This document shows positions 17,908 through 64,000 of a stretch of DNA of 64,000 nt, piece after piece. This DNA comes from Escherichia coli (GTDB taxonomy: Bacteria > Pseudomonadota > Gammaproteobacteria > Enterobacterales > Enterobacteriaceae): assembly GCF_965641715.1 (NCBI RefSeq), contig NZ_OZ282455.1. The stretch is one strand, 5' to 3'. The translations under genes were made by a program, and so were the position numbers. The notes below the pieces were generated by a model that was not told where the DNA came from, did no database searches, and saw only the letters and a list, made by a program, of their open reading frames with translations. How positions within the stretch are numbered: position 1 is the first letter of the stretch; every line of letters starts with the position of its first letter.

Positions 17908-18140
17908 GACAAAGTCTCCATTTCTGGAATTTAAATCAAACGGAAAGGTTAAAAATTTATTTGCAGGCGATAAGAGCTAACCAGAGGAATTAGCCGTGCG
18001 ATAAAAGGATTGTTGCAGATACGAAAGTCGTTAGAATAGCTGCGGGCGCTTGAGGCTGTATGCCGAAAGCGTTTTGTGGACGGTATACAGCAGAAAGCCC
18101 CTGGAGATTTTTTTATCAATCAACCAAGGGCTCTACTGTA

Positions 18141-18344
18141 ATGCCTAGACAACATTATAGTAGCCCGATAACCGCCGTAAGGCAATGGAGGGGCTATGAT
18201 GCCACAGCGAACGTTTTTAATGATGTTAATCGTCATCTGTGTGACGATTCTGTGTTTTGTCTGGATGGTGAGGGATTCGCTTTGCGTACTCCGGCTCCAG
18301 CAGGGAAACACAGTGCTTGTGGCAACGTTAGCCTACGAAGTTAA
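18141..18344 (+). CDS. pndC: PndC (mok-type overlapping reading frame)
   Basis: Reading frame overlapping pndA and ending inside it, as in hok/mok and pndA/pndC. Confidence 0.45.
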   Translation: MPRQHYSSPITAVRQWRGYDATANVFNDVNRHLCDDSVFCLDGEGFALRTPAPAGKHSACGNVSLRS

Positions 18345-18674: not shown

Positions 18675-18828
18675 CGGATTTTCTCTCTGTATTTATGGGT
18701 AGTTATCGAACTGAATGTGCCAGTTTTTTCAGGAGACGGCAAAGTTGAGATGATTGGTTCTGATTCAGAGCATGAGTTTCCTCGGTGTGACGGGCATGTC
18801 GGGCGGATTTTGAGAAACAACAGATGTA

Positions 18829-18860
18829 AAAAAACCGACTGGTGAGGTCGGTTTTTTTAC
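18829..18860. terminator. bidirectional rho-independent terminator
   Basis: A7-ACCGACTGGTGAGGTCGGT-T7: hairpin flanked by A-run and T-run. Confidence 0.7.
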
Positions 18861-18890
18861 TGTTCCGTTACAGAGTGGGTGGCCCTGACC

Positions 18891-18914
18891 GGAGGAAATC
18901 TCTTTTCAACTAAC
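18891..18914 (+). repeat. direct repeat copy 1 (GGAGGAAATCTCTTTTCAACTAAC)
   Basis: 24-bp element repeated at 19078-19101 with one mismatch. Confidence 0.7.
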
Positions 18915-52014: not shown

Positions 52015-53568
52015 TTAGGCATCATCGATGCTGAGGCGTTCGTCTTCGTCCAGAGGGATGATTCTGTCGGCTTCAAGAGGGTCCACCAGGCCTTCATTGA
52101 TACGGCGAAGAAGATGCTCTACACGACTGATGCCATGCATGTTTTCAAGCCAGTATTTACGTGCTGCAACTTTGCCGCGTGTTTTCAGAATCTGAAATAA
52201 GCGATTATCAGGTTCTATCACTTCAGCAATTACGGTCCTGCCGGTGAGGCCTTTACCTATTTCACCGCGCTTTCTGCCGTTAATAATTACGTCGTGATTA
52301 CAGTCGGAGCATCCGTGAGGATTTCGGAACCAGATATTATCTGTACTGCAGAGTGAATCTTTATTGCAGTGCCGCTCAAGGTAAGCGCGGTCGTCTTCGC
52401 TAAGTTCTGGTACTCGCTTTTCCCATGGAATACGGCAGGAGGGACACAGAGTTGGTACAAGACGCTGGCTGATCATCCCAATCAGTAATTGCGCATCGCA
52501 AATAAGATCGGCATTCATACCCATCGTAATCATCCGCTCCGGTATACCCAGAGCTGAGTTTGTATGTAATGTCGTCAGAACGATGTGACCGGTCTGAGCC
52601 GCGTAGGTTGTTGACATCATCGAGACAAGATCGCGCATTTCCCCTTCCATGATGGCATCGGGGTCAAGTCGCATTGCCGATGAAATAGCACGACTCCATG
52701 CCAGTTTGACGGCCTCTTCGTCGGATTTGTCACAGATAATCGGGGTTTGTGTTGCCCCCAGAATCTGTCCTTCCAGCGGATCTTCGATCGTCAGCAGGTG
52801 TCGCCCCTGATTATCGTCAAGATATACACGGCAGGCACTGCGTAACGTTGTTGATTTACCTGAACCTGTTGGACCAGACAGAACTATTTTCCCTTCCGGG
52901 CGGCGCAGCATGACGTTCAGCAACCGGATTTGCTCCGGTATAAAGCCCAGTTGCTTAAACGTGGGAACTTTGTCTCCGTCATCGGGTATCAGGCGCATAA
53001 CTGCAATCAGACCATCTCCCGTAGGTCTGTGACTGTATCGTGCACCAAATATTCCTATTTTTCGCATTAATTGTGGGGACAGGCGCGCATCCTGTTCCCT
53101 TTGAGGGAAGAAACTGGTTTCAGTCACATCAGCCATTGACAGAATGGCTGTTGCGCAAAGTGAATAACCCAACGCAGGTTGATCTTCATCTACAGTTTGC
53201 AGTTCACCGAATATTCTCATGCGAACTTTGAAAATAGACTCTGAAATTAAAAAATGAATATCTGAAGCACCAAGTTTTCTGGCTGTTTCAAAATAGGAGA
53301 GAACTTTCTTCTCACTTTCACTAACATCTGCAAGATCTTTCAGATGAATAATCCGTTCTTTCGGACCTTTATTTTCATCATCCTGACCGGCTTCCTGTAA
53401 CTCAGACAGCGAGACTACTTTTGGGGTGATGTCAGGGTATAAGTTTAGCAGTTCCTGGAGATTACTCTGTACGTCAGGTCTTGTTCGCTGATTTGTTTCG
53501 ATGAGAATTTCATGGGTGTCTCCCCGGGATATAAAAAGGAGAGCATCCTTCAAATTATATTTGTCCAT
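52015..53568 (-). CDS. pilQ: PilQ assembly ATPase (GspE-like)
   Basis: 517-aa ORF with Walker A GPTGSGKST and Cys-rich C-terminal cluster. Confidence 0.8.
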   Translation of the reverse strand: MDKYNLKDALLFISRGDTHEILIETNQRTRPDVQSNLQELLNLYPDITPKVVSLSELQEAGQDDENKGPKERIIHLKDLADVSESEKKVLSYFETARKLGASDIHFLISESIFKVRMRIFGELQTVDEDQPALGYSLCATAILSMADVTETSFFPQREQDARLSPQLMRKIGIFGARYSHRPTGDGLIAVMRLIPDDGDKVPTFKQLGFIPEQIRLLNVMLRRPEGKIVLSGPTGSGKSTTLRSACRVYLDDNQGRHLLTIEDPLEGQILGATQTPIICDKSDEEAVKLAWSRAISSAMRLDPDAIMEGEMRDLVSMMSTTYAAQTGHIVLTTLHTNSALGIPERMITMGMNADLICDAQLLIGMISQRLVPTLCPSCRIPWEKRVPELSEDDRAYLERHCNKDSLCSTDNIWFRNPHGCSDCNHDVIINGRKRGEIGKGLTGRTVIAEVIEPDNRLFQILKTRGKVAARKYWLENMHGISRVEHLLRRINEGLVDPLEADRIIPLDEDERLSIDDA

Positions 53569-57001: not shown

Positions 57002-57439
57002 TTAGTTAACGTAGACGACAGAACCAGCAGTAATGCCTGCCGGGGGTGTCAGACCGGTTGCAGTTCCTGATAGCCAGGTGAGTTGCCCGTTTTGGAAGAT
57101 CCCTATTAGTGCAGAACCACGACTTTTTGAACGCAAAGTTTCAACAAGTCCTGGTTGTTCAGGCATCCATACCCACAGACGCCCCTGTTGTAACTGATGT
57201 TTAATTCGGGAGTCCGGAGTGACAGGGAGAGCCAGTTTATCTGAGGAAATTACTCCGTCCTGCTGGCCTGATACGTATCTGATATCATTGATTCTATTAG
57301 CAATCATTAGTATCTGACTTGCCCATACAGACGCACTTGCATATTGCTGGGCGTTTGTGGTTTCAGACATCTTCTGATTCTGGTAGCTACCAGTGATAAT
57401 CAGAATGGTCAGGCCGACGGCCATGACCAGCCATCCCAT
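57002..57439 (-). CDS. pilM: PilM
   Basis: 145-aa ORF with N-terminal TM; synteny. Confidence 0.6.
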   Translation of the reverse strand: MGWLVMAVGLTILIITGSYQNQKMSETTNAQQYASASVWASQILMIANRINDIRYVSGQQDGVISSDKLALPVTPDSRIKHQLQQGRLWVWMPEQPGLVETLRSKSRGSALIGIFQNGQLTWLSGTATGLTPPAGITAGSVVYVN

Positions 57440-58506
57440 TAGCGACCATCCCTTGTATCAGAAACTGTAATGATGCACTGCATGCGAGAAGCCTGTGCGT
57501 ATAAAGGTTTTTGCGCAGTCCGATATAACTCAAATACCTGCTCCATGGCTGATTCAAATGATCCCCGGAACATCAAAGGCGCATCAAGACGGTAATCGGT
57601 TACAGAAAGTGGCCATATGACCATCCAGTGCGTTGATGCCATGCTTTCGCATTTTGTTTCTTCTGCCCACTTAATAATGTTTTCCCTTAATGTAGTGCCT
57701 GCCGGCGCACGCCACTCTTTACCCTGAGATACCGGTTTGACAGGTGTCCCGGTCATGAGTGGGATAGACTTGACTGTAGAGCCGGTCGGAGTCGGGATTG
57801 CTGCGGGCGTAGACGGAGATACGCTGTTTCCCCTGAATGGGTTTCGTGGTTTGTTCTGGCTATTTGCTGTCGTTGAAGACTCCGGGGAAGTGGATGTGGT
57901 TACCATGGCTGCTGGCGAGATAGTGGTTGCCGTGTCCTGTGCCGGTGCAGCAGCCGATGTTGTGACGGTCAACATTTTATTATCCCAGTCCAGATGGCCC
58001 CAGAGGTGTTGTTCTTCCAGCAACCGGTTCAGAGAACGGGTCCACTGATCATTGGCAGACCATGAAACCAGTTTGGTATTCAGTTTGGGCGTGGCTGCAT
58101 TCTCTTGTCTGAATTTCCATCCTTCCGGTAGTAATGTTTTTATCCACTGACTGACGGTCCGGTTACGGGCCGTCGGCGATAGTGTTACAGGGGTGCTACC
58201 AGGCTTGCCTGTAATGATTAACCGGGAGAAATTCTGACTTATTGTTGGTGAAGGTAACGGTCGGGATTCGCTTACTGGCTGTGCTGTTTTTACTGTCTCT
58301 GGCACGCTGACTCTCGGGGGCGGAGTTATTTTAGGTGGAGAAAGTCGTTGTTGCGTAAGTGCCAGGACGCCAGCACTCTCACTGATTTGTCCGTCAACAA
58401 AAACCAGAGCAGGCGTATCTGATGGTGCCACGTTATTGCCGCCGGAAATTCCGGCACAGCCGGACAATAATGACGGCAGTATAAGTGTCAGATAGTTTTT
58501 TTTCAT
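57439..58506 (-). CDS. pilL: PilL lipoprotein
   Basis: 355-aa ORF with lipobox LSGC; synteny. Confidence 0.65.
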   Translation of the reverse strand: MKKNYLTLILPSLLSGCAGISGGNNVAPSDTPALVFVDGQISESAGVLALTQQRLSPPKITPPPRVSVPETVKTAQPVSESRPLPSPTISQNFSRLIITGKPGSTPVTLSPTARNRTVSQWIKTLLPEGWKFRQENAATPKLNTKLVSWSANDQWTRSLNRLLEEQHLWGHLDWDNKMLTVTTSAAAPAQDTATTISPAAMVTTSTSPESSTTANSQNKPRNPFRGNSVSPSTPAAIPTPTGSTVKSIPLMTGTPVKPVSQGKEWRAPAGTTLRENIIKWAEETKCESMASTHWMVIWPLSVTDYRLDAPLMFRGSFESAMEQVFELYRTAQKPLYAQASRMQCIITVSDTRDGR

Positions 58507-58834
58507 AACGGAGACTCCGTGTTCGTATATACGTGTTTGTTAGTTAATGCGGACTTTAAGTAAGGGTTCATTATTTTATGTGCAATTGGATGGGTAATGT
58601 ATACCGGTATTGAGAGAATTACTCCTGAATGTCCCGTTTTAGTCGCATTCAGAAGTCTGCTTGGGTCTTTAATATTGTTGATTAGTATTTTCATTATTCT
58701 ATCTTTTGAATTTTAATGTTGCATGTTATTTTAAAGGTGAGGTTGTGGATAGCCAATTAAGCCAGTGTTTTGGGATTTTTTGTGAAAATAAAAATCCTGC
58801 TTATGAGCATTCTTTTTATATCTAAATGTATTTT

Positions 58835-59428
58835 TTAATTGGTGTGGTGGGTCTGGAGAGGACGAATGACGACTGTCATTCCGTCCGAATGCAAATGCGG
58901 GAAAGACCACTGAAACAAGAGATATATAAAAGGAATTGATAATTTTTCGTACAGACTTGTTTTCCGTGGGTATGTAATAACTGAAAAACTCAAATCATAA
59001 GATTCCAGTCTCTTTATAAGTTTATTTATTCTTGCTGGAGTAAAGAGATGTGAATGCATGACAATGATTTCATCATTATTAATTGCTTTTGATATCAGAG
59101 AAAGCAATACATCCCAGTGTTTCCTCATTGACTTCGGGCAACGTGTGTCAGCATAGGGGCTAAGATGTATAGTTGATTTCTTGCTTCCCTTTTTCTTCTT
59201 CACAAAGAATGTGAAGTCGTATTTAGATGCAGACCTTACAATAAGAAGTACACATCTGAAAAGTAGTGGGAAAATGCAAATCACAACCACCACACAGAAA
59301 TATAACATATAAGGCAATGATAAGTTGTCAGTGTATGGATAACGTAAGTATTGCCATGGGGTAGTGATGTACAGACAAAGCGTACACCAAAGCAACCAGA
59401 GATATAATGGTGCGTTATTATTTTTCAT
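58835..59428 (-). CDS. pilK: putative PilK (membrane protein, AT-rich gene)
   Basis: 197-aa ORF with two N-terminal TM helices in AT-rich DNA; name by position. Confidence 0.45.
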   Translation of the reverse strand: MKNNNAPLYLWLLWCTLCLYITTPWQYLRYPYTDNLSLPYMLYFCVVVVICIFPLLFRCVLLIVRSASKYDFTFFVKKKKGSKKSTIHLSPYADTRCPKSMRKHWDVLLSLISKAINNDEIIVMHSHLFTPARINKLIKRLESYDLSFSVITYPRKTSLYEKLSIPFIYLLFQWSFPHLHSDGMTVVIRPLQTHHTN

Positions 59429-59552
59429 GTTGGCTGAGGCAGGCGACTAAAATAACAGACTAAGGAGGATTAACTGTTTAATTCTTTGGAACAAAAAAAT
59501 GCAGTTCCTGATCATCACACACCATTGAATAAACATTTTGCTTCGGTTGCGT

Positions 59553-59852
59553 TCATGATAGCCAGTCCTGTAGATGCTGATGGCGGGAGCTGCTGCCCTT
59601 GTGCCAGCGGCAGTGGCTGCCGGGAGCACGCTCCAGTCGGAACAGAAATCGGTTGTCGCGTAGTACCATCACGAGACAGTTATCCGGCGTGCAGAAACGT
59701 CGGGCAAGCTCATCGGGGTCTGTCGGTGTTTTCGTTGAAAACAGCCTGCGTTTGCAGTGCGTGTCGACGACCAGTACCTGTAGTCGTCCGGGATGTTGCT
59801 GTGGCATCAAAGACTCCTTCCGGAACGGGAAAAGAAGCAGCTGTACCGCCAT
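59553..59852 (-). pseudogene. degenerate partial duplicate of the 5' part of the downstream lipoprotein gene
   Basis: Leader plus N-terminal coding sequence is paralogous to 60400-60710 (HPQVTFTVDTVRTDT vs HPGRLQVLVVDTHCKRR) but lacks the signal peptide. Confidence 0.3.
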
Positions 59853-59869
59853 AACTGCACGTACCGGTT

Positions 59870-59995
59870 GCGAAAAAACGGCACAAGCGAGTAGTGACAG
59901 AAAGAATCCCGGGAACGGCAGAAAGGGGGGTACAGGCTGCGAAGGCGGGACACGGGGTGTGTCGGGAATTAACGCATGTGAGGCGTGATGAGAAC
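59870..59995. repeat. ~125-bp direct repeat, copy 1
   Basis: TTGCGAAAAAA.GGCACAAGCGAGTAGTGACAGAAAGAAT...GGTACAGGCTGCGAAG repeated at 60583-60710. Confidence 0.7.
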
Positions 59996-60520
59996 AACGC
60001 GTTTTTCGCTAGCTCCGCCTCCGGCGAATCCATTCATGACAAGGGACTGTTCCGGTCTGAGAGAAATGCTCTGCTCAACAGTCTGGTTTCGTTTCTGGTC
60101 TGTGGTCGAGAGTCGCAGAGTGATATTTCCGGAGCCCCCCTGAATATCCGGCGATATCTGCATTCTGACATCGGGGGATACATCAGCAGTAAAGGCATCC
60201 GGACCTACGGATGTTACCTGTGATTCAACACAGGACGTATTCTGCATCATCCTGTGGAGCGTTTCAGGTGTCAGCGTCAGGCTGTCATTAAAAAAAGCAC
60301 TGTGTGAAATGACCCCCTGAGCATCGGCAAACAGGTCCGGATGGCGCTCATTAAGAAGGCTTCCGTATTTTTCCGCCAGGCAGATTGGGTTGCTGGCCGT
60401 TGTGTCTGTTCGCACGGTATCGACCGTGAATGTCACCTGCGGGTGATGTTCCCTGTGGCCTGTGCAGCCGGACAGCAGTGCGGCGGCTATCGTCATCCAG
60501 AGTAGTGGTTGTTTTTTCAT
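59969..60520 (-). CDS. putative lipoprotein (pilI/pilJ region)
   Basis: 183-aa ORF with lipobox LSGC. Confidence 0.5.
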   Translation of the reverse strand: MKKQPLLWMTIAAALLSGCTGHREHHPQVTFTVDTVRTDTTASNPICLAEKYGSLLNERHPDLFADAQGVISHSAFFNDSLTLTPETLHRMMQNTSCVESQVTSVGPDAFTADVSPDVRMQISPDIQGGSGNITLRLSTTDQKRNQTVEQSISLRPEQSLVMNGFAGGGASEKRVVLITPHMR

Positions 60521-60582
60521 GCTGTTAATTTCCTCTCAGGGTAAAAAGAAAGACTCGCACCGTCATGTCGATGGGGGGCCGC

Positions 60583-60710
60583 TTGCGAAAAAATGGCACA
60601 AGCGAGTAGTGACAGAAAGAATGTCGGAAACGGCAGGAAGGGCGGTACAGGCTGCGAAGACTGGAAACGGGGTATGCCGGGGATTACACATCCTCAGTGT
60701 AATGTGATAG
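60583..60710. repeat. ~125-bp direct repeat, copy 2
   Basis: See copy 1. Confidence 0.7.
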
Positions 60711-61377
60711 TCGTCTGCTCCTGTGTTGCACCCCAGACATCTTCTGGCAGGCTGGGCAGCCCGATAAATAGGGTGTGAAAGAGGGTTTCTCTGCGTTCGA
60801 TCCCGAATTGATGTTCGTATCCTCTCACCACCTGAAATCCTTCGTCGGAGAATATTAACTCTGCCGTTTCCAGAAGCTGCATAGTTTTGCGGTGTAGTGG
60901 AGTGATCAGCTGCAACGTAACTGGTGCCCTCATATCGCCTGTCGGTAGAAAACACTCTTCGGTGCGACTTAGTTGTAGCAGGTGACGTTTCCCGGAACAG
61001 GCCCGTTCAATGGATTCATTGAACACCCTCTCAGGCCATGGGCAGACATATGTGCGCCAGCCTGCTTTTTGTAATTTACCCAGTGCAGCCCGAAAACGAA
61101 ACAACGGACATTCCCCGACAGTGGCAGAGCTGAGAAAGAGCGTATTCAGCGTTCCGATGATGGGAATATTGCGATCTTTTTCGGTCAATGCTTTTAACGC
61201 CATGATTTCGCCAGGGAGACTACGGAACTCAGGATGTCTGCTGGCACCAGAAAGCCATTCAAGCAGGTAATGCCGTAATCCGGTTTCACTGGTTATATTG
61301 TGGTTTTCCTGTGCCGTTTTCAGGGCATTCAGTGCACACCAGAGCAACTGGCGCACGGGATGTTCTGTCGTGGTCAT
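60694..61377 (-). CDS. hypothetical protein (227 aa) in the tra regulatory region
   Basis: ORF only; no family recognised. Confidence 0.45.
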   Translation of the reverse strand: MTTTEHPVRQLLWCALNALKTAQENHNITSETGLRHYLLEWLSGASRHPEFRSLPGEIMALKALTEKDRNIPIIGTLNTLFLSSATVGECPLFRFRAALGKLQKAGWRTYVCPWPERVFNESIERACSGKRHLLQLSRTEECFLPTGDMRAPVTLQLITPLHRKTMQLLETAELIFSDEGFQVVRGYEHQFGIERRETLFHTLFIGLPSLPEDVWGATQEQTTITLH

Positions 61378-61593
61378 GCGAATGTCCTACTGTGAGATGA
61401 AAAGAAGACCGGTATCCGCTCTCTCCGCCACACGTGATGGCACGGGCCGGCCTTTGATAAAACGAATCAATACTCTGGGGTGAAGCCTTTTATTTCTTTC
61501 GCCATTAAGAAATACACGATTCCATCAAAAGACAGGGGGAGTCCATGGTGGGGATGGCTTCGTGCAGGCTTCACTCCAGAATATTCTCTGAAT

Positions 61594-61621
61594 TGAAAAA
61601 AGCCCGGCCCGAAGGCCGGGA
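61594..61621 (-). terminator. rho-independent terminator immediately downstream of the NusG-like gene
   Basis: GCCCGGCC-CGAA-GGCCGGG hairpin followed on the minus strand by T6. Confidence 0.6.
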
Positions 61622-61629
61622 AATACTGG

Positions 61630-62184
61630 CTATGGGATGTTTACAAGGCGCTCCATAAAGCCGTGATGTTCGGCATTTGATACCAGTTCCAGGAGCAGGG
61701 ATATCCTCGACTCAGGCTGGAGAGTATTTTCCATTCTGAGGAGATACTGATATTGTGCTTTTGTCAGCCATATGCTGGAAGCCGCATTCAGCTCTTCCCT
61801 GGCTCCCGGATTTAGCACAGGGTCCGGGTAAATCTTCATTAATCCATCAACAATATCTTTATTGACGGGTTTTATTTCACCGCCAAACTTCACGAAATCA
61901 ATGAAGGCGCTATGGCGACGTAATGCCGATACTGGTTGAATGTCAAAATTAGCCAGAATAAAAAAGTACCCTGGAAAAATAGCGAATATTCTTTCACGGT
62001 AACAGCGCCTGGAGTCTGCCCGTCTTATCTTTCTTGTTATTAATGGAGTCCATGGTACGACGTTTTGCTCATTCAGCCATGAGAATAAAGATTCTCTGTT
62101 TTTGCCGGCTGTATTATATTGCGCAAGATACCAGTTCCGGTTATTCAGGTGTTCTATATTCACGAAGTTCAACGCTCCGCGCAA
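61630..62184 (-). CDS. traB: RfaH/NusG-like transcription antitermination factor (likely TraB)
   Basis: N-terminal NGN-like WYLAQY...LFPGYFFI and KOW-like FVKFGG motifs; track ORF begins at a TTG, true start uncertain. Confidence 0.6.
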   Translation of the reverse strand: MRGALNFVNIEHLNNRNWYLAQYNTAGKNRESLFSWLNEQNVVPWTPLITRKIRRADSRRCYRERIFAIFPGYFFILANFDIQPVSALRRHSAFIDFVKFGGEIKPVNKDIVDGLMKIYPDPVLNPGAREELNAASSIWLTKAQYQYLLRMENTLQPESRISLLLELVSNAEHHGFMERLVNIP

Positions 62185-62300
62185 AACCGATCCATGATGG
62201 ACGATTTTGCGATGTCAGGCGAATATGCTAAATCATATGTCTGAAGCAGTGTCCAGCCCATATCTGGATAAACTGCAGTTCTGACAGGCATATAACCAGC
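62168..62300. repeat. conserved ~135-bp intergenic element, copy B (at the 5' end of the NusG-like gene)
   Basis: See copy A. Confidence 0.6.
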
Positions 62301-62604
62301 AGACTCTAGTACGTTCTGTATCGGTGATTTGGCGAACTCACAGATAAAGAACGGCTAAGCACTAATATCAGCAATACAGTGGCACAGTATTGTGATACGC
62401 GAAATAAAACATCAGCACGTCAGTTCAGAGTAAGATCGCCATATATCGGGCATGAGCCAGATACAAATAACTGGGACACCGTCTGAAGTGATTTGCTTTA
62501 TTAAAGTAACTTGTGCTTGGTGTTTATGTTTATCAATTTGGGATCGCCTGTAAAGTGCAAAATGCAATTTCCATGAAAGTGTCCCCTTTAATGGGGACAC
62601 CTGT

Positions 62605-62913
62605 TCACATTTTTTCGTTTTCTTTAGCTGTATTGCTAATCATGAAAACGAAAGTTCGCATCAGCACAGCAGAGCGAAGTGCATCATATCCTTCCAGATT
62701 TAAATTCTTCAGGCTTCGCTTCAGGTAGGTTCGTACCGTTTCGGGAGAAAGCCGACAGTTCTGAGCAATGGCGTCGTAAGGAACACCCATTGCGTAAAAA
62801 ACGCAGACTTTAAGCTGGTTTGTTGATAGCTCGGGAAACATGCCTTCCAACAGAGTGATGGCCGGGAGTTTCTGTATCAGTTGAGGTGACATAGCAAAGG
62901 TCTCCGATGACAA
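62605..62913 (-). CDS. LuxR/GerE-type HTH transcriptional regulator (tra regulatory gene)
   Basis: C-terminal HTH pattern LKVCVFYAMGVPYDAIAQNCRLSPETVRTYLKRSLKNL. Confidence 0.55.
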   Translation of the reverse strand: MSSETFAMSPQLIQKLPAITLLEGMFPELSTNQLKVCVFYAMGVPYDAIAQNCRLSPETVRTYLKRSLKNLNLEGYDALRSAVLMRTFVFMISNTAKENEKM

Positions 62914-63230
62914 CTAAAAACGCTATCACCGAGTTCCTACGCTCATTGGTGATAGCCCAGACGGGGGTAGGAATACCGGCGTCATCGGAAACCGGCCAGG
63001 CTAATGCCTGCCCCGCCTGAGCTACCATAGATGACGACAAGAAATACAAGTTCCTGTCTTTATGGTATGGCAAAAAACGACGCCAAATGAAGAAATTAAC
63101 TTCTGCGCCGACGATGACTACGCGGGTTCCTACGCCCGATCACAGTTTTGCCTGTGACCAGTAAAGGGTACTTAGTATAACGCACCGAGTCAACTAACAG
63201 CTTAAAAAACATACAAAAAAGCGTCAAAAC

Positions 63231-63600: not shown

Positions 63601-63892
63601 CAGAAAAATCTGCTTTTAAAAATAGATTTTATTTTTTTGACGCAGGTCAAGATTAACTTATTAGAGGTATCAGTGAGGAGGCACTGGAAGAGAAGAGATC
63701 GTTGTAATGCTTTTCAAATTAACGTAAAGCGGGTATATTTCGGCTGTTATTAGCTGTGCAGAGGGTGGCACTCTGTGGAGCAAAGCGGCGAAAGCCGGAC
63801 GGCAGAATGCGCCATAAGGCATTCAGGAGAGATGGCATGTACGGACAGTAAGTCAGAAGACTGAAGATGTTCCGGAAGCCATAAAAGGAAAA

Positions 63893-63943
63893 CCCCCACT
63901 ATCTTTCTTACGAACTTGGCGGAACGACGAAAGATAGTGGGGG
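63893..63943. promoter_or_regulatory. IncI-type replication-control stem-loop (target/antisense Inc RNA region); rep genes lie beyond the window
   Basis: Perfect 15-bp stem CCCCCACTATCTTTC / GAAAGATAGTGGGGG with a loop containing TTGGCG, the loop hexanucleotide I recall for IncI/IncB copy-number control RNAs. Confidence 0.45.
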
Positions 63944-64000
63944 CCTCACAGAATACGGGTAAAGTATAATGAAACCGTACCAGAGATTCAACCCTGTGCA

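Follow-up and report, generated by a model that had tools for sequence, protein, structure and literature searches.

The window, by which we mean the whole 64,000-nt stretch of Escherichia coli DNA that was analysed, holds the junction between the regulatory and the pilus genes of a conjugative plasmid of IncI1 type, and at this junction the leader of the pil operon is partly duplicated on the two sides of a lipoprotein gene. On the minus strand the gene order is traA, traB, traC, leader copy A, the lipoprotein gene, leader copy B, pilI, a relic of pilJ, pilK and pilL. The repeat consists of non-coding leader sequence only, and the rearrangement is a real, fairly ordinary plasmid event, not a decayed gene copy. 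Considering jointly the structure of the locus, the history of its deletions and the role of the leader, we regard the account given below as the best explanation overall, with a probability of about 0.75. An earlier note on this DNA had described the leader of the pil operon as locally rearranged, with a tandem duplication; that description stands, while the specific reading attached to it, i.e. a partial gene duplication with decay of one copy, does not.

A repeat search returned a direct repeat of 108 nt with 88% identity, at 59864-59971 (copy B) and 60579-60686 (copy A) on the minus strand, with a spacing of 715 nt, and BLAST gave an E value of about 1e-34. Each copy is located upstream of a minus-strand ORF, as had been noted before. 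The copies are in direct orientation, have no terminal inverted repeats and include a block of 28 nt that is identical in both. At the 5′ edge of the repeat about 6-9 more bases can be aligned (ATGTG-TAAT versus ATGCGTTAAT), and the two copies are unrelated over the 60 nt that precede the core. At the other edge, the similarity ends about 58-59 nt before the ATG of the lipoprotein gene and 12 nt before the ATG of an ORF of 99 aa. The stretches between core and start codon had only a marginal collinear match of 23 nt (113 of 2000 shuffles were as good), and over their first 150 nt the coding regions resembled each other at the level of shuffled sequences (1073 of 2000 shuffles scored as well). 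The first part of the lipoprotein gene, which the earlier note had counted as duplicated, is thus not part of the repeat. The number of copies is two, since no third one was found either in the whole 64-kb window or at the leaders of other transfer operons; an 18-nt match to the leader at 52264 was at chance level and was discarded.

The ORF of 99 aa (59553-59852) is the pilI frame begun at an upstream ATG, a codon that reads ACG in R64-type plasmids; precisely, it is an N-terminally over-extended reading of an intact pilI gene (59553..59807, minus strand), which codes for 84 aa from the ATG at 59807 and is preceded by the Shine-Dalgarno (SD) sequence GGAAGGAG. Its 84-aa product matched the Pfam family of PilI (PF10623) over residues 8-83 with 110.6 bits, against a cutoff of 25, and an E value of 2.8e-32, and PilI genes of 255 nt are annotated by PGAP in related plasmids, R64-type ones included. 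The ORF had been taken for a lipoprotein remnant without signal peptide, on the assumption that the leader and the 5′ part of the lipoprotein gene were duplicated in tandem and that the downstream copy then decayed. A leader-like sequence is indeed present ahead of both ORFs, and in both copies there is an ATG at the same offset, about 12 nt past the repeat core. However, the downstream ORF is pilI, which is kept in R64-type plasmids that do not have the lipoprotein, and the lipoprotein and PilI share neither a BLASTP match nor any similarity at the DNA level beyond that of shuffled coding sequence, besides the fact that the upstream ATG is not conserved in the R64 type. Both genes are also found intact and distinct in related plasmids, an outcome that the earlier note had itself named as refuting its reading: the lipoprotein gene is in about 950 plasmid records and the pilI leader with the start of pilI in about 1,430, at 83% identity or more. 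We consider a history of tandem duplication and decay highly improbable. The ATG that lies 12 nt past the core was also evaluated as the start of a conserved upstream ORF, a candidate that was rejected because the codon is ACG in R64-type plasmids and the reading frames differ between the copies.

The lipoprotein gene (59969..60520, minus strand) codes for 183 aa, with a signal peptide that ends in the lipobox LLSGC (translated N-terminus MKKQPLLWMTIAAALLSGC). In the alignment of the family the residues L-S-G-C are nearly invariant, and Pfam LPAM_1 gave weak matches in 3 members; in the records with this gene identity goes down to 42%, in IncI2. As judged by sequence comparison, it is an intact, conserved accessory gene of I-complex plasmids and is unrelated to pilI, and no homology of its product to PilI, TraD or PilL was found beyond the signal peptide. 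The C-terminal half of the protein resembles the C-terminal part of the secretin domain. The motif QSLV(V/M)xGF...(K/R)xxV(L/I)ITP is common to the lipoprotein and to the PilN of the window, hhalign aligned the two over 54 columns (probability 79%, E 1.6e-5), and the best fold matches of the lipoprotein model (pLDDT 62, moderate) were secretins, the lipoprotein secretin BfpB among them. Compared with known secretins (PilN, BfpB, PilQ and GspD, PF00263), the protein differs in its length of just 183 aa, in having no N-domains and in its sub-threshold Pfam score: the lipoprotein of the window had no match to PF00263, and 3 of 13 homologues reached an E value of 0.0044 at best, below threshold.

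As regards the other genes of the locus, traC (60694..61377, minus strand) codes for a positive regulator of transfer genes of 227 aa, annotated as TraC in related plasmids, and its stop codon TGA (60694-60696) is 3 nt ahead of the start of the homology of copy A. The traB gene, just upstream, encodes a NusG/RfaH-like protein according to a profile search. On the other side of pilI there is a remnant of pilJ (59481..59525, minus strand) that corresponds to 45 nt of its 3′ end: with the R64-type PilJ as query, tblastn matched the last 15 aa alone (93% identity), and the remaining part of pilJ is absent from this plasmid. It is followed by a pilK-like gene (58835..59428, minus strand) of 197 aa, paralogous to R64 TraD (BLASTP of TraD against the pilK-like protein, 32% identity over 97 aa, E 1e-11). 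To our knowledge, traD, pilI and pilJ are dispensable for transfer.

Copy B starts at the stop codon TAA of the lipoprotein gene (59969-59971), and its 108-nt core makes up, from the 5′ end, two-thirds of the genuine pilI leader, which is about 164-165 nt long (59808..59971, minus strand). Copy A, on the same strand, is a partial duplicate, diverged by 12%, of the 5′ part of this leader. Together with positions 60687-60690 it keeps a relic of the region of the lipoprotein stop codon (TGTG-TAAT versus TGCGTTAAT), and it therefore derives from a leader that was once downstream of a lipoprotein gene. It is an older, diverged partial duplicate of the pilI leader, placed after traC, and it may have originated either by duplication in situ followed by divergence or by import from another lineage. 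Between copy A and the ATG of the lipoprotein gene there is a spacer of 58 nt (60521..60578, minus strand) with the SD sequence GAGAGGA, which the comparison with other plasmids identifies as belonging natively to the 5′ side of the lipoprotein gene: in its 3′ part it can be aligned with the sequence that precedes the lipoprotein homologue of IncI2 (locus L004), and a relocated copy of the lipoprotein gene in pMbl536 has the same left boundary (60574 in the window). An origin of the spacer from the 3′ end of orf92 was rejected, as it matches the 5′ flank of the IncI2 lipoprotein gene instead.

Related plasmids differ in the layout of this junction. In the IncK/Z and IncB/O type the order is traC, traD, orf92, lipoprotein gene, leader and pilI; in the R64 type traD is right after traC, the leader is single and the lipoprotein gene is gone save for its last 43 nt; the two-copy type is that of the window; in the pESBL type there is one chimeric leader, A-type on its left and B-type on its right, and no lipoprotein gene. 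The 1,431 leader records in PLSDB included about 460 of the two-copy, 550 of the single chimeric and 350 of the R64-like layout, and the corresponding records in complete E. coli genomes were 314, 226 and 214, where these counts represent the three main identity bands of each search and not a record-by-record classification. The same leader precedes pilI in all the I-complex plasmids examined, and in the related plasmids that we compared it is always at the junction between traC or the lipoprotein gene and pilI. Between this plasmid and IncK-like relatives the identity of the leader is about 87%, and that of the adjoining lipoprotein DNA is only slightly lower (83%). Two similar non-coding copies that flank a gene variably present among relatives could also be members of a family of dispersed repeats or mobile elements (REP/ERIC/MITE-like, or an integron-type cassette site). 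Nevertheless, 1,100 of the 1,105 occurrences of the element in 5,426 complete E. coli genomes were plasmid-borne, the median being one per genome, and its two copies per window, its fixed junction and its lack of terminal inverted repeats make such a family scarcely credible as an explanation.

The traABCD-pilI region of R64 is the subject of Kim, Funayama and Komano 1993, as cited in PMC11880322. The R64 type (locus L003) shares with the window traA, traB, traC, pilI, pilK and pilL, with identical order and strand, as well as the pilI leader, copy B being 95.7% identical to the R64-type leader. It differs in having traD, a single leader, pilJ and the 43-nt relic of the lipoprotein gene, whereas in the window traD is missing, pilJ is reduced to a relic, the leader has a second, partial copy and the lipoprotein gene is intact. 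The absence of traD in pESBL-EA11 and in other IncI1 plasmids was already recorded (PMC4288162, PMC5801416), and the gene table of pESBL supports the single-leader layout (PMC4288162). The pESBL-EA11 type has in common with the window traC, followed by the same junction and by the A-type 5′ part of the leader, and differs in its one chimeric leader and in the absence of the lipoprotein gene; from this comparison it is best read as a deletion product of the two-copy layout.

Homologous recombination between short direct repeats gives rise to deletion and gene conversion, and the junction has several features in common with this process, i.e. repeats of 108 nt with an identical block of 28 nt, relatives with a single hybrid leader and without the gene, and a copy B that is mosaic in some plasmids. 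The switch from A-type to B-type in the single chimeric leader falls inside the 28-nt identical block, and at the diagnostic sites four single-leader plasmids read AAAAAAAAAAA and then, on the other side of the switch, BBBB, one of the four differing at a single site. In copy B of loci L001 and L008 there are A-type states at three sites, which are not found in the outgroups; such patchy A-type states, carried by copy B in the commonest two-copy plasmids, are suggestive of gene conversion between copy A and copy B. What sets the case apart from the general process is that one crossover pattern is found in all the single-leader plasmids examined, which is compatible with a single historical event, so that the deletion may have occurred once and spread.

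We propose, by comparison of these loci, that the ancestral layout was likely traC-traD-orf92-lipoprotein-leader-pilI, which is still present in IncK/Z and IncB/O, and that the IncI1 lineages would be deletion derivatives of it. The R64 type would have lost orf92 and the lipoprotein gene, of which the 43-nt relic remains; the present two-copy type would have lost traD and orf92, with copy A in their place; the pESBL type would have lost the lipoprotein gene as well, by homologous recombination of copy A with copy B. The direction of these events is deduced from a handful of loci and from parsimony. It could have been the reverse, with the single-leader layout as the older one and a module made of spacer, lipoprotein gene and leader inserted into it, in which case the repeats would be the scar of a gene gain and not the substrate of a loss. 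In favour of an insertion, single-leader plasmids have exactly the 5′ junction of copy A (traC stop, GGA and relic of the lipoprotein stop region), as if the deletion of traD, orf92 and lipoprotein gene had come first; the spacer, the lipoprotein gene and the first 60 nt or so of the leader were transposed as a unit in pMbl536, with the same left boundary; and the spacer, shared with IncI2, is the flank that the lipoprotein gene natively has on its 5′ side. On the other hand, the single leader and copy A differ at two sites only, both in the last 19 nt, after 117 identical columns, and this clustering of the differences at the end indicates a homologous crossover with another leader-like sequence, so the donor of an insertion would need to have two copies already. 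We consider the reverse direction unlikely and retain the deletion history.

We also considered composition and predicted folding of the leader. On the sense strand, copy B has 37 C and 12 G in 78 nt, which is rank 1 for C minus G among the sense-strand windows of the whole 64 kb, and copy A, with 40 C and 19 G, is at rank 6 among 78-nt windows. Both copies are above the 99.9th percentile for C minus G and are C-rich and G-poor in the manner of a rut site, and the orthologous leaders rank first or second for C minus G within their own loci. The full pilI leader has a predicted minimum free energy of -55 kcal/mol, with z of -3.2 (0 of 200 shuffles) and -2.9, and the orthologous leaders have z from -1.5 to -2.8. 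For copy A no stable fold is predicted (z about 0-0.4), and the 141-nt segments, folded by themselves, did not reach significance (sense strand, z -0.7 and -1.0; antisense strand, about 0). In the predicted fold of the pilI leader a long-range helix of 11 bp is formed by a 5′ arm at 59929-59940 (GCAGCCUGUACC) and a 3′ arm at 59837-59847 (GGUACAGCUGC), and base pairs form between the 5′ edge of the leader, overlapping the upstream stop codon, and the SD sequence of pilI (59814-59821) together with its AUG. A compensatory double change was found in 1 of 42 predicted pairs, in leaders that are all at least 83% identical, for which reason consensus folding is uninformative. At its 3′ end the core can form a hairpin, CGCTTGTGCC-N-CGCAAGCG, which was discarded, as it is perfect in copy A only and contains a C-C mismatch in every pilI leader. 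To some extent, a stable fold conflicts with the presence of a rut site, which would be unstructured.

No sigma-70 promoter (-35 and -10 elements with a spacing of 16-18 nt) was found in either copy, by a scan outside which activator-dependent promoters fall, and the 108-nt core of either copy contains no intrinsic terminator. A weak hairpin of 6 bp with a T-run is present downstream of copy B (59850..59836) and overlaps the 3′ arm in the pilI leader, and the sole strong terminator nearby is at 61620..61603, after traB. No ops motif (GGCGGTAGnnTG-like) was found on the sense strand of either copy within 2 mismatches; a GGCGGTAC-like string in copy A is on the opposite strand. Rfam 15 gave no match in the leader, either at the gathering score over the whole window or at E values up to 1 in the region 58000-63000, where C4 and a chance SorX were the only matches. 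A search by eye of the leader for an FNR or CRP box, done since FNR regulates pil in pESI, gave none that was convincing.

TraB is required for pil transcription in pESI (PMC5013300), a plasmid that carries the single chimeric leader (locus L009). Anti-polarity control by RfaH and ops is known for long operons, such as the F tra operon, and for IncX PrfaH with an ops-like site (PMC7593976, PMC11880322). In common with these systems, the plasmid of the window has an RfaH-like TraB encoded upstream and a C-rich, G-poor tract, candidate for Rho entry, between the regulators and the pil operon. It differs from them in that the sense strand of the leader has no ops-like motif, and IncX PrfaH has its recruitment site in the 5′ UTR of the regulator itself. 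We tentatively suggest that the leader acts in cis, at the RNA level, as a regulatory 5′ leader of the pil operon. Its rut-like 5′ tract could sustain a polarity dependent on Rho, which the RfaH-like TraB would relieve, and pairing of the pilI ribosome-binding site with the 5′ edge of the leader at the upstream stop codon would, in the predicted fold, couple the translation of pilI to that of the upstream ORF. Copy A, which has the C-rich part only, may put the lipoprotein gene behind the same tract or may be a mere by-product of recombination.

A bolder version of this proposal combines all these elements: the leader would be a dedicated RNA switch of I-complex plasmids, in which Rho, through the C-rich 5′ tract, aborts transcription of the thin-pilus operon unless TraB is on the RNA polymerase, and the closing helix keeps the pilI ribosome-binding site covered as long as no ribosome has terminated at the stop codon within the 5′ edge of the leader, and copy A would have been co-opted to put a mini-secretin lipoprotein under TraB control, at the same time making its gene excisable. 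If true, it would explain why the R64 type has a 21-codon relic ORF that ends at the same stop codon; taken as a whole, we consider it quite improbable. At the other extreme, copy A could have no function at all, as the neutral by-product of recombination in a dispensable region, with the C-richness and the fold of the leader being incidental. It has no 3′ arm and no fold, its repeat core has no promoter, terminator, ops or Rfam signal, and relics of deletions abound at this junction (43 nt of the lipoprotein gene, 45 nt of pilJ, the loss of traD). In contrast, copy A and copy B alike are among the top 0.1% of C-rich windows, and the full leader is kept in about 1,430 plasmids through every rearrangement. 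We judge a copy A without function to be a real possibility, at somewhat less than even odds.

Among the major carriers of resistance genes, those for ESBL included, are IncI1 and related plasmids, whose thin pilus determines liquid mating and the choice of the recipient. The account given here explains a structural polymorphism that is common where the transfer regulators adjoin the pil operon, as traD, orf92, the secretin-like lipoprotein gene and pilJ can be either present or absent there, and, on the evidence of the sequences compared, the duplicated short leader is likely the substrate for the loss of the lipoprotein gene. It also corrects the annotation of the region, the "hypothetical" ORF of 99 aa being pilI and the lipoprotein a conserved secretin-like accessory protein, and the region can be used as a simple marker of plasmid lineages. 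Finally, composition and fold make the leader a place in which to look for a TraB control of pilus expression, which we put forward as a hypothesis.

The repeat search reported a sole long direct repeat in the window, of 108 nt and 88% identity, with its copies at 59864-59971 (copy B, in the 5′ part of the pilI leader) and 60579-60686 (copy A, after traC) and a spacing of 715 nt. By BLAST against the window, each copy matched its partner with an E value of about 1e-34, and neither query returned a third copy. The repeat is real and is now explained, and the earlier note was right in placing leader-like sequence before two successive ORFs. That note had also extended the duplication into the first part of the lipoprotein gene, but in pairwise and multiple alignments the identity drops directly past the 108-nt core, with 59 nt still to go to the lipoprotein ATG and 12 nt to that of a 99-aa ORF, and the first 150 nt of the two ORFs have no coding similarity (1073 of 2000 shuffles scored equally well). 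The segments between core and start codons gave a marginal collinear match of 23 nt, equalled by 113 of 2000 shuffles, and a shuffle test detected nothing in the 60 nt upstream of the core. A dispersed repeat was ruled out, since in complete E. coli genomes 1,100 of the 1,105 places found for the leader were on plasmids, and the median genome carried one.

The 99-aa ORF (59852..59553, minus strand) is by its sequence pilI itself, and its earlier reading as a gene remnant is refuted. The start is the second ATG, at 59807, with GGAAGGAG ahead of it; the resulting 84-aa product matches Pfam PilI (E 2.8e-32), PGAP calls the same 255-nt gene in related plasmids, and R64-type plasmids have ACG at the position of the upstream ATG. 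The surrounding ORFs, also on the minus strand, are traC (61377..60694), the 183-aa lipoprotein (60520..59969), a pilK-like gene of 197 aa (59428..58835) and pilL (58506..57439), with the NusG/RfaH-like traB upstream. Between pilI and pilK only the last 15 codons of pilJ remain (59481-59525, minus strand), the remainder having been deleted in the lineage of the present plasmid.

The leader is present in about 1,430 PLSDB records, and we observed four layouts among the loci extracted from related plasmids. IncK/Z and IncB/O relatives (L005, L006, L011) have traC-traD-orf92-lipoprotein-leader-pilI; the R64 type (L003) has traC-traD, a 21-codon relic ORF, the leader and pilI-pilJ-pilK; the two-copy type of the window itself (L001, L008) has traC-A-lipoprotein-B-pilI; and the single-leader type (L002, L009, L010, L012) has traC-leader-pilI, without traD or lipoprotein. 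The O104:H4 outbreak plasmid pESBL belongs to the last type, and its published gene table gives the same traC-pilI gap of 126 nt (PMC4288162). Class sizes were estimated in two independent collections, using the three main identity bands of each rather than going record by record: the two-copy, single-leader and R64-like classes number roughly 460, 550 and 350 records in PLSDB, and 314, 226 and 214 in complete E. coli genomes.

Copy A begins 3 nt past the traC stop with TGTG-TAAT. This string aligns with TGCGTTAAT, the final codons and stop of the lipoprotein gene, where copy B starts; by this alignment, copy A therefore derives from a leader that formerly lay behind a lipoprotein gene. The cores of A and B differ at 15 sites; of these, the single-leader plasmids (4/4) carry the A state at the first eleven and the B state at the last four, with one site differing in one plasmid, and the switch falls within a 28-nt block identical in both copies. 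Such a pattern is what a deletion of the lipoprotein gene by homologous recombination between copies A and B, leaving a single chimeric leader, would be expected to produce. Direct repeats around an accessory gene, with its recombinational loss, are a well-known kind of event. The reverse direction, in which a single-leader layout gained the lipoprotein gene, would require a donor already carrying two copies, and copy A differs from the single leader at two sites only, both in its last 19 nt; we therefore prefer loss to gain, although the single-leader plasmids share one crossover pattern, for which one historical event could account. In the commonest two-copy plasmids, three sites of copy B are in an A state that outgroup leaders do not share, which suggests gene conversion. 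That pESBL-type plasmids lack traD has been noted before (PMC4288162, PMC5801416); in the searchable literature we met with no account of the leader duplication, of the lipoprotein gene or of a chimeric single leader.

The R64-type relic (L003 2951-3016, between traD and leader) is a mini-ORF, MKINVDDPGKKSFALITPHVR*, with its own AGGA; the lipoprotein gene's 3′ end makes up its final 43 nt, and its stop is the TAA with which the pilI leader begins. This ORF may be a neutral leftover, or may be kept because a translated ORF must end there. In pMbl536 (IncK2/Z), a 97% identical lipoprotein gene lies between rci (shufflon recombinase) and traF (L007 2404-3049), far from traC and pilI, in a block that also holds the 58-nt 5′ spacer and extends ~60 nt into the leader. 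The left boundary of this block is within 5 nt of the copy A end. In the RefSeq record H180, the feature under the match is annotated "flagellar basal body L-ring protein FlgH" and is presumably this relocated gene.

The lipoprotein has a classical lipobox (LLSGC), and its homologues, all unnamed, occur only on I-complex plasmids, with identity down to 42% (IncI2). The 58-nt spacer from copy A to its ATG is the native 5′ flank of the gene, its 3′ part aligning with sequence upstream of the IncI2 homologue. Several lines suggest a secretin-like C-terminal half: the family profile aligns with residues 440-514 of PilN, the window's own secretin (E 1.6e-5), and three homologues have weak matches to Pfam Secretin. 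The window's allele (59969-60520, minus strand) is rare, with 8 plasmid records at >=99% protein identity and 479 at 80-90%, mostly 89.6%; the protein is far more divergent than the flanking traC and copy A (99-100%), a pattern suggestive of diversifying selection on this surface-associated protein or of its replacement by recombination. R64 TraD (L003 3040-3606) and the PilK-like protein (58835-59428, minus strand) are paralogues (32% identity over 97 aa, E 1e-11), and in IncK-type plasmids a lipoprotein gene follows TraD much as the lipoprotein PilL follows PilK. This parallel is a hint that a pair of genes was duplicated at an earlier time, although outside the signal peptide the lipoprotein has no similarity to PilI, R64 TraD or PilL, the last being its counterpart in the supposed units.

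Taken whole, with the upstream stop codon at one end and the pilI AUG at the other, the pilI leader is predicted to fold far more stably than shuffles (z -3.2 and -2.9; -1.5 to -2.8 for orthologous leaders), with a long-range helix of 11 bp (GCAGCCUGUACC / GGUACAGCUGC). In 4/6 pilI leaders, the pilI SD and AUG are predicted to pair with the 5′ edge, where leader and upstream stop codon overlap, suggesting long-range translational coupling; leader diversity is too low for a covariation signal. Copy A, without the 3′ arm, does not fold (z about 0). As a reasonable alternative to a functional role, it may be a neutral outcome of recombination in a stretch that the plasmid can dispense with. Scans of the core for promoter-like sites, terminator-like sites and Rfam families were negative; nearby, they gave one match only, a weak hairpin of 6 bp with a T-run (59850..59836), which falls in the 3′ portion of the pilI leader.

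Elsewhere in the window, Rfam gave a full-length match to the C4 antisense RNA family (RF01695; 62945-63032, minus strand; 77.5 bits against a gathering score of 45, E 1.9e-13) just upstream of traA. Going by published accounts that put it directly upstream of traA, the Hft ("high-frequency transfer") region of pESBL would fall at roughly this place; the Hft papers examined do not mention a C4 antisense RNA. The match could be a repressor element whose disruption yields superspreader mutants. PK-repZ (63885-64000, plus, cut by the window end), sok antitoxin RNA (18044-18201, plus) and AgrB (18826-18913, minus) also reached gathering scores and were assumed to be ordinary plasmid backbone elements.

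On its sense strand, the leader is rich in pyrimidines. When all sense-strand 78-nt windows of the 64 kb are ranked for high C and low G, copy B comes first (C 37, G 12) and copy A sixth, both being above the 99.9th percentile, and orthologous leaders rank first or second within their own loci. Such composition is a hallmark of Rho entry (rut) sites. A strong intrinsic-terminator-like hairpin (61603-61620, minus strand; CCCGGCCTTCGGGCCGGG then CTTTTTT) lies directly 3′ of the traB stop, about 225 nt ahead of traC, and transcription must thus pass a terminator to reach traC and the pil genes. In pESI, pil transcription needs TraB (PMC5013300), and plasmid NusG paralogues have been proposed as tra-operon antiterminators (PMC7593976). 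The leader sense strand has no ops-like motif; in IncX plasmids the recruitment site is within the regulator's own 5′ UTR. At 62170-62182 (minus strand), 7-19 nt upstream of the traB GTG start (62163), GCGCGGAGCGTTG resembles the RfaH ops element (GGCGGTAGCGTG), with a possible CGC/GCG hairpin, and lies in the traB 5′ UTR near the position where the IncX PrfaH ops-like site was mapped (-42 to -25). The string does not vary among the 6 loci compared, but the entire traB UTR is equally invariant there. The functional ideas are offered as hypotheses, and the context of the leader fits an anti-polarity scheme, in which a rut-like leader tract would be overcome by the RfaH-like TraB encoded upstream.
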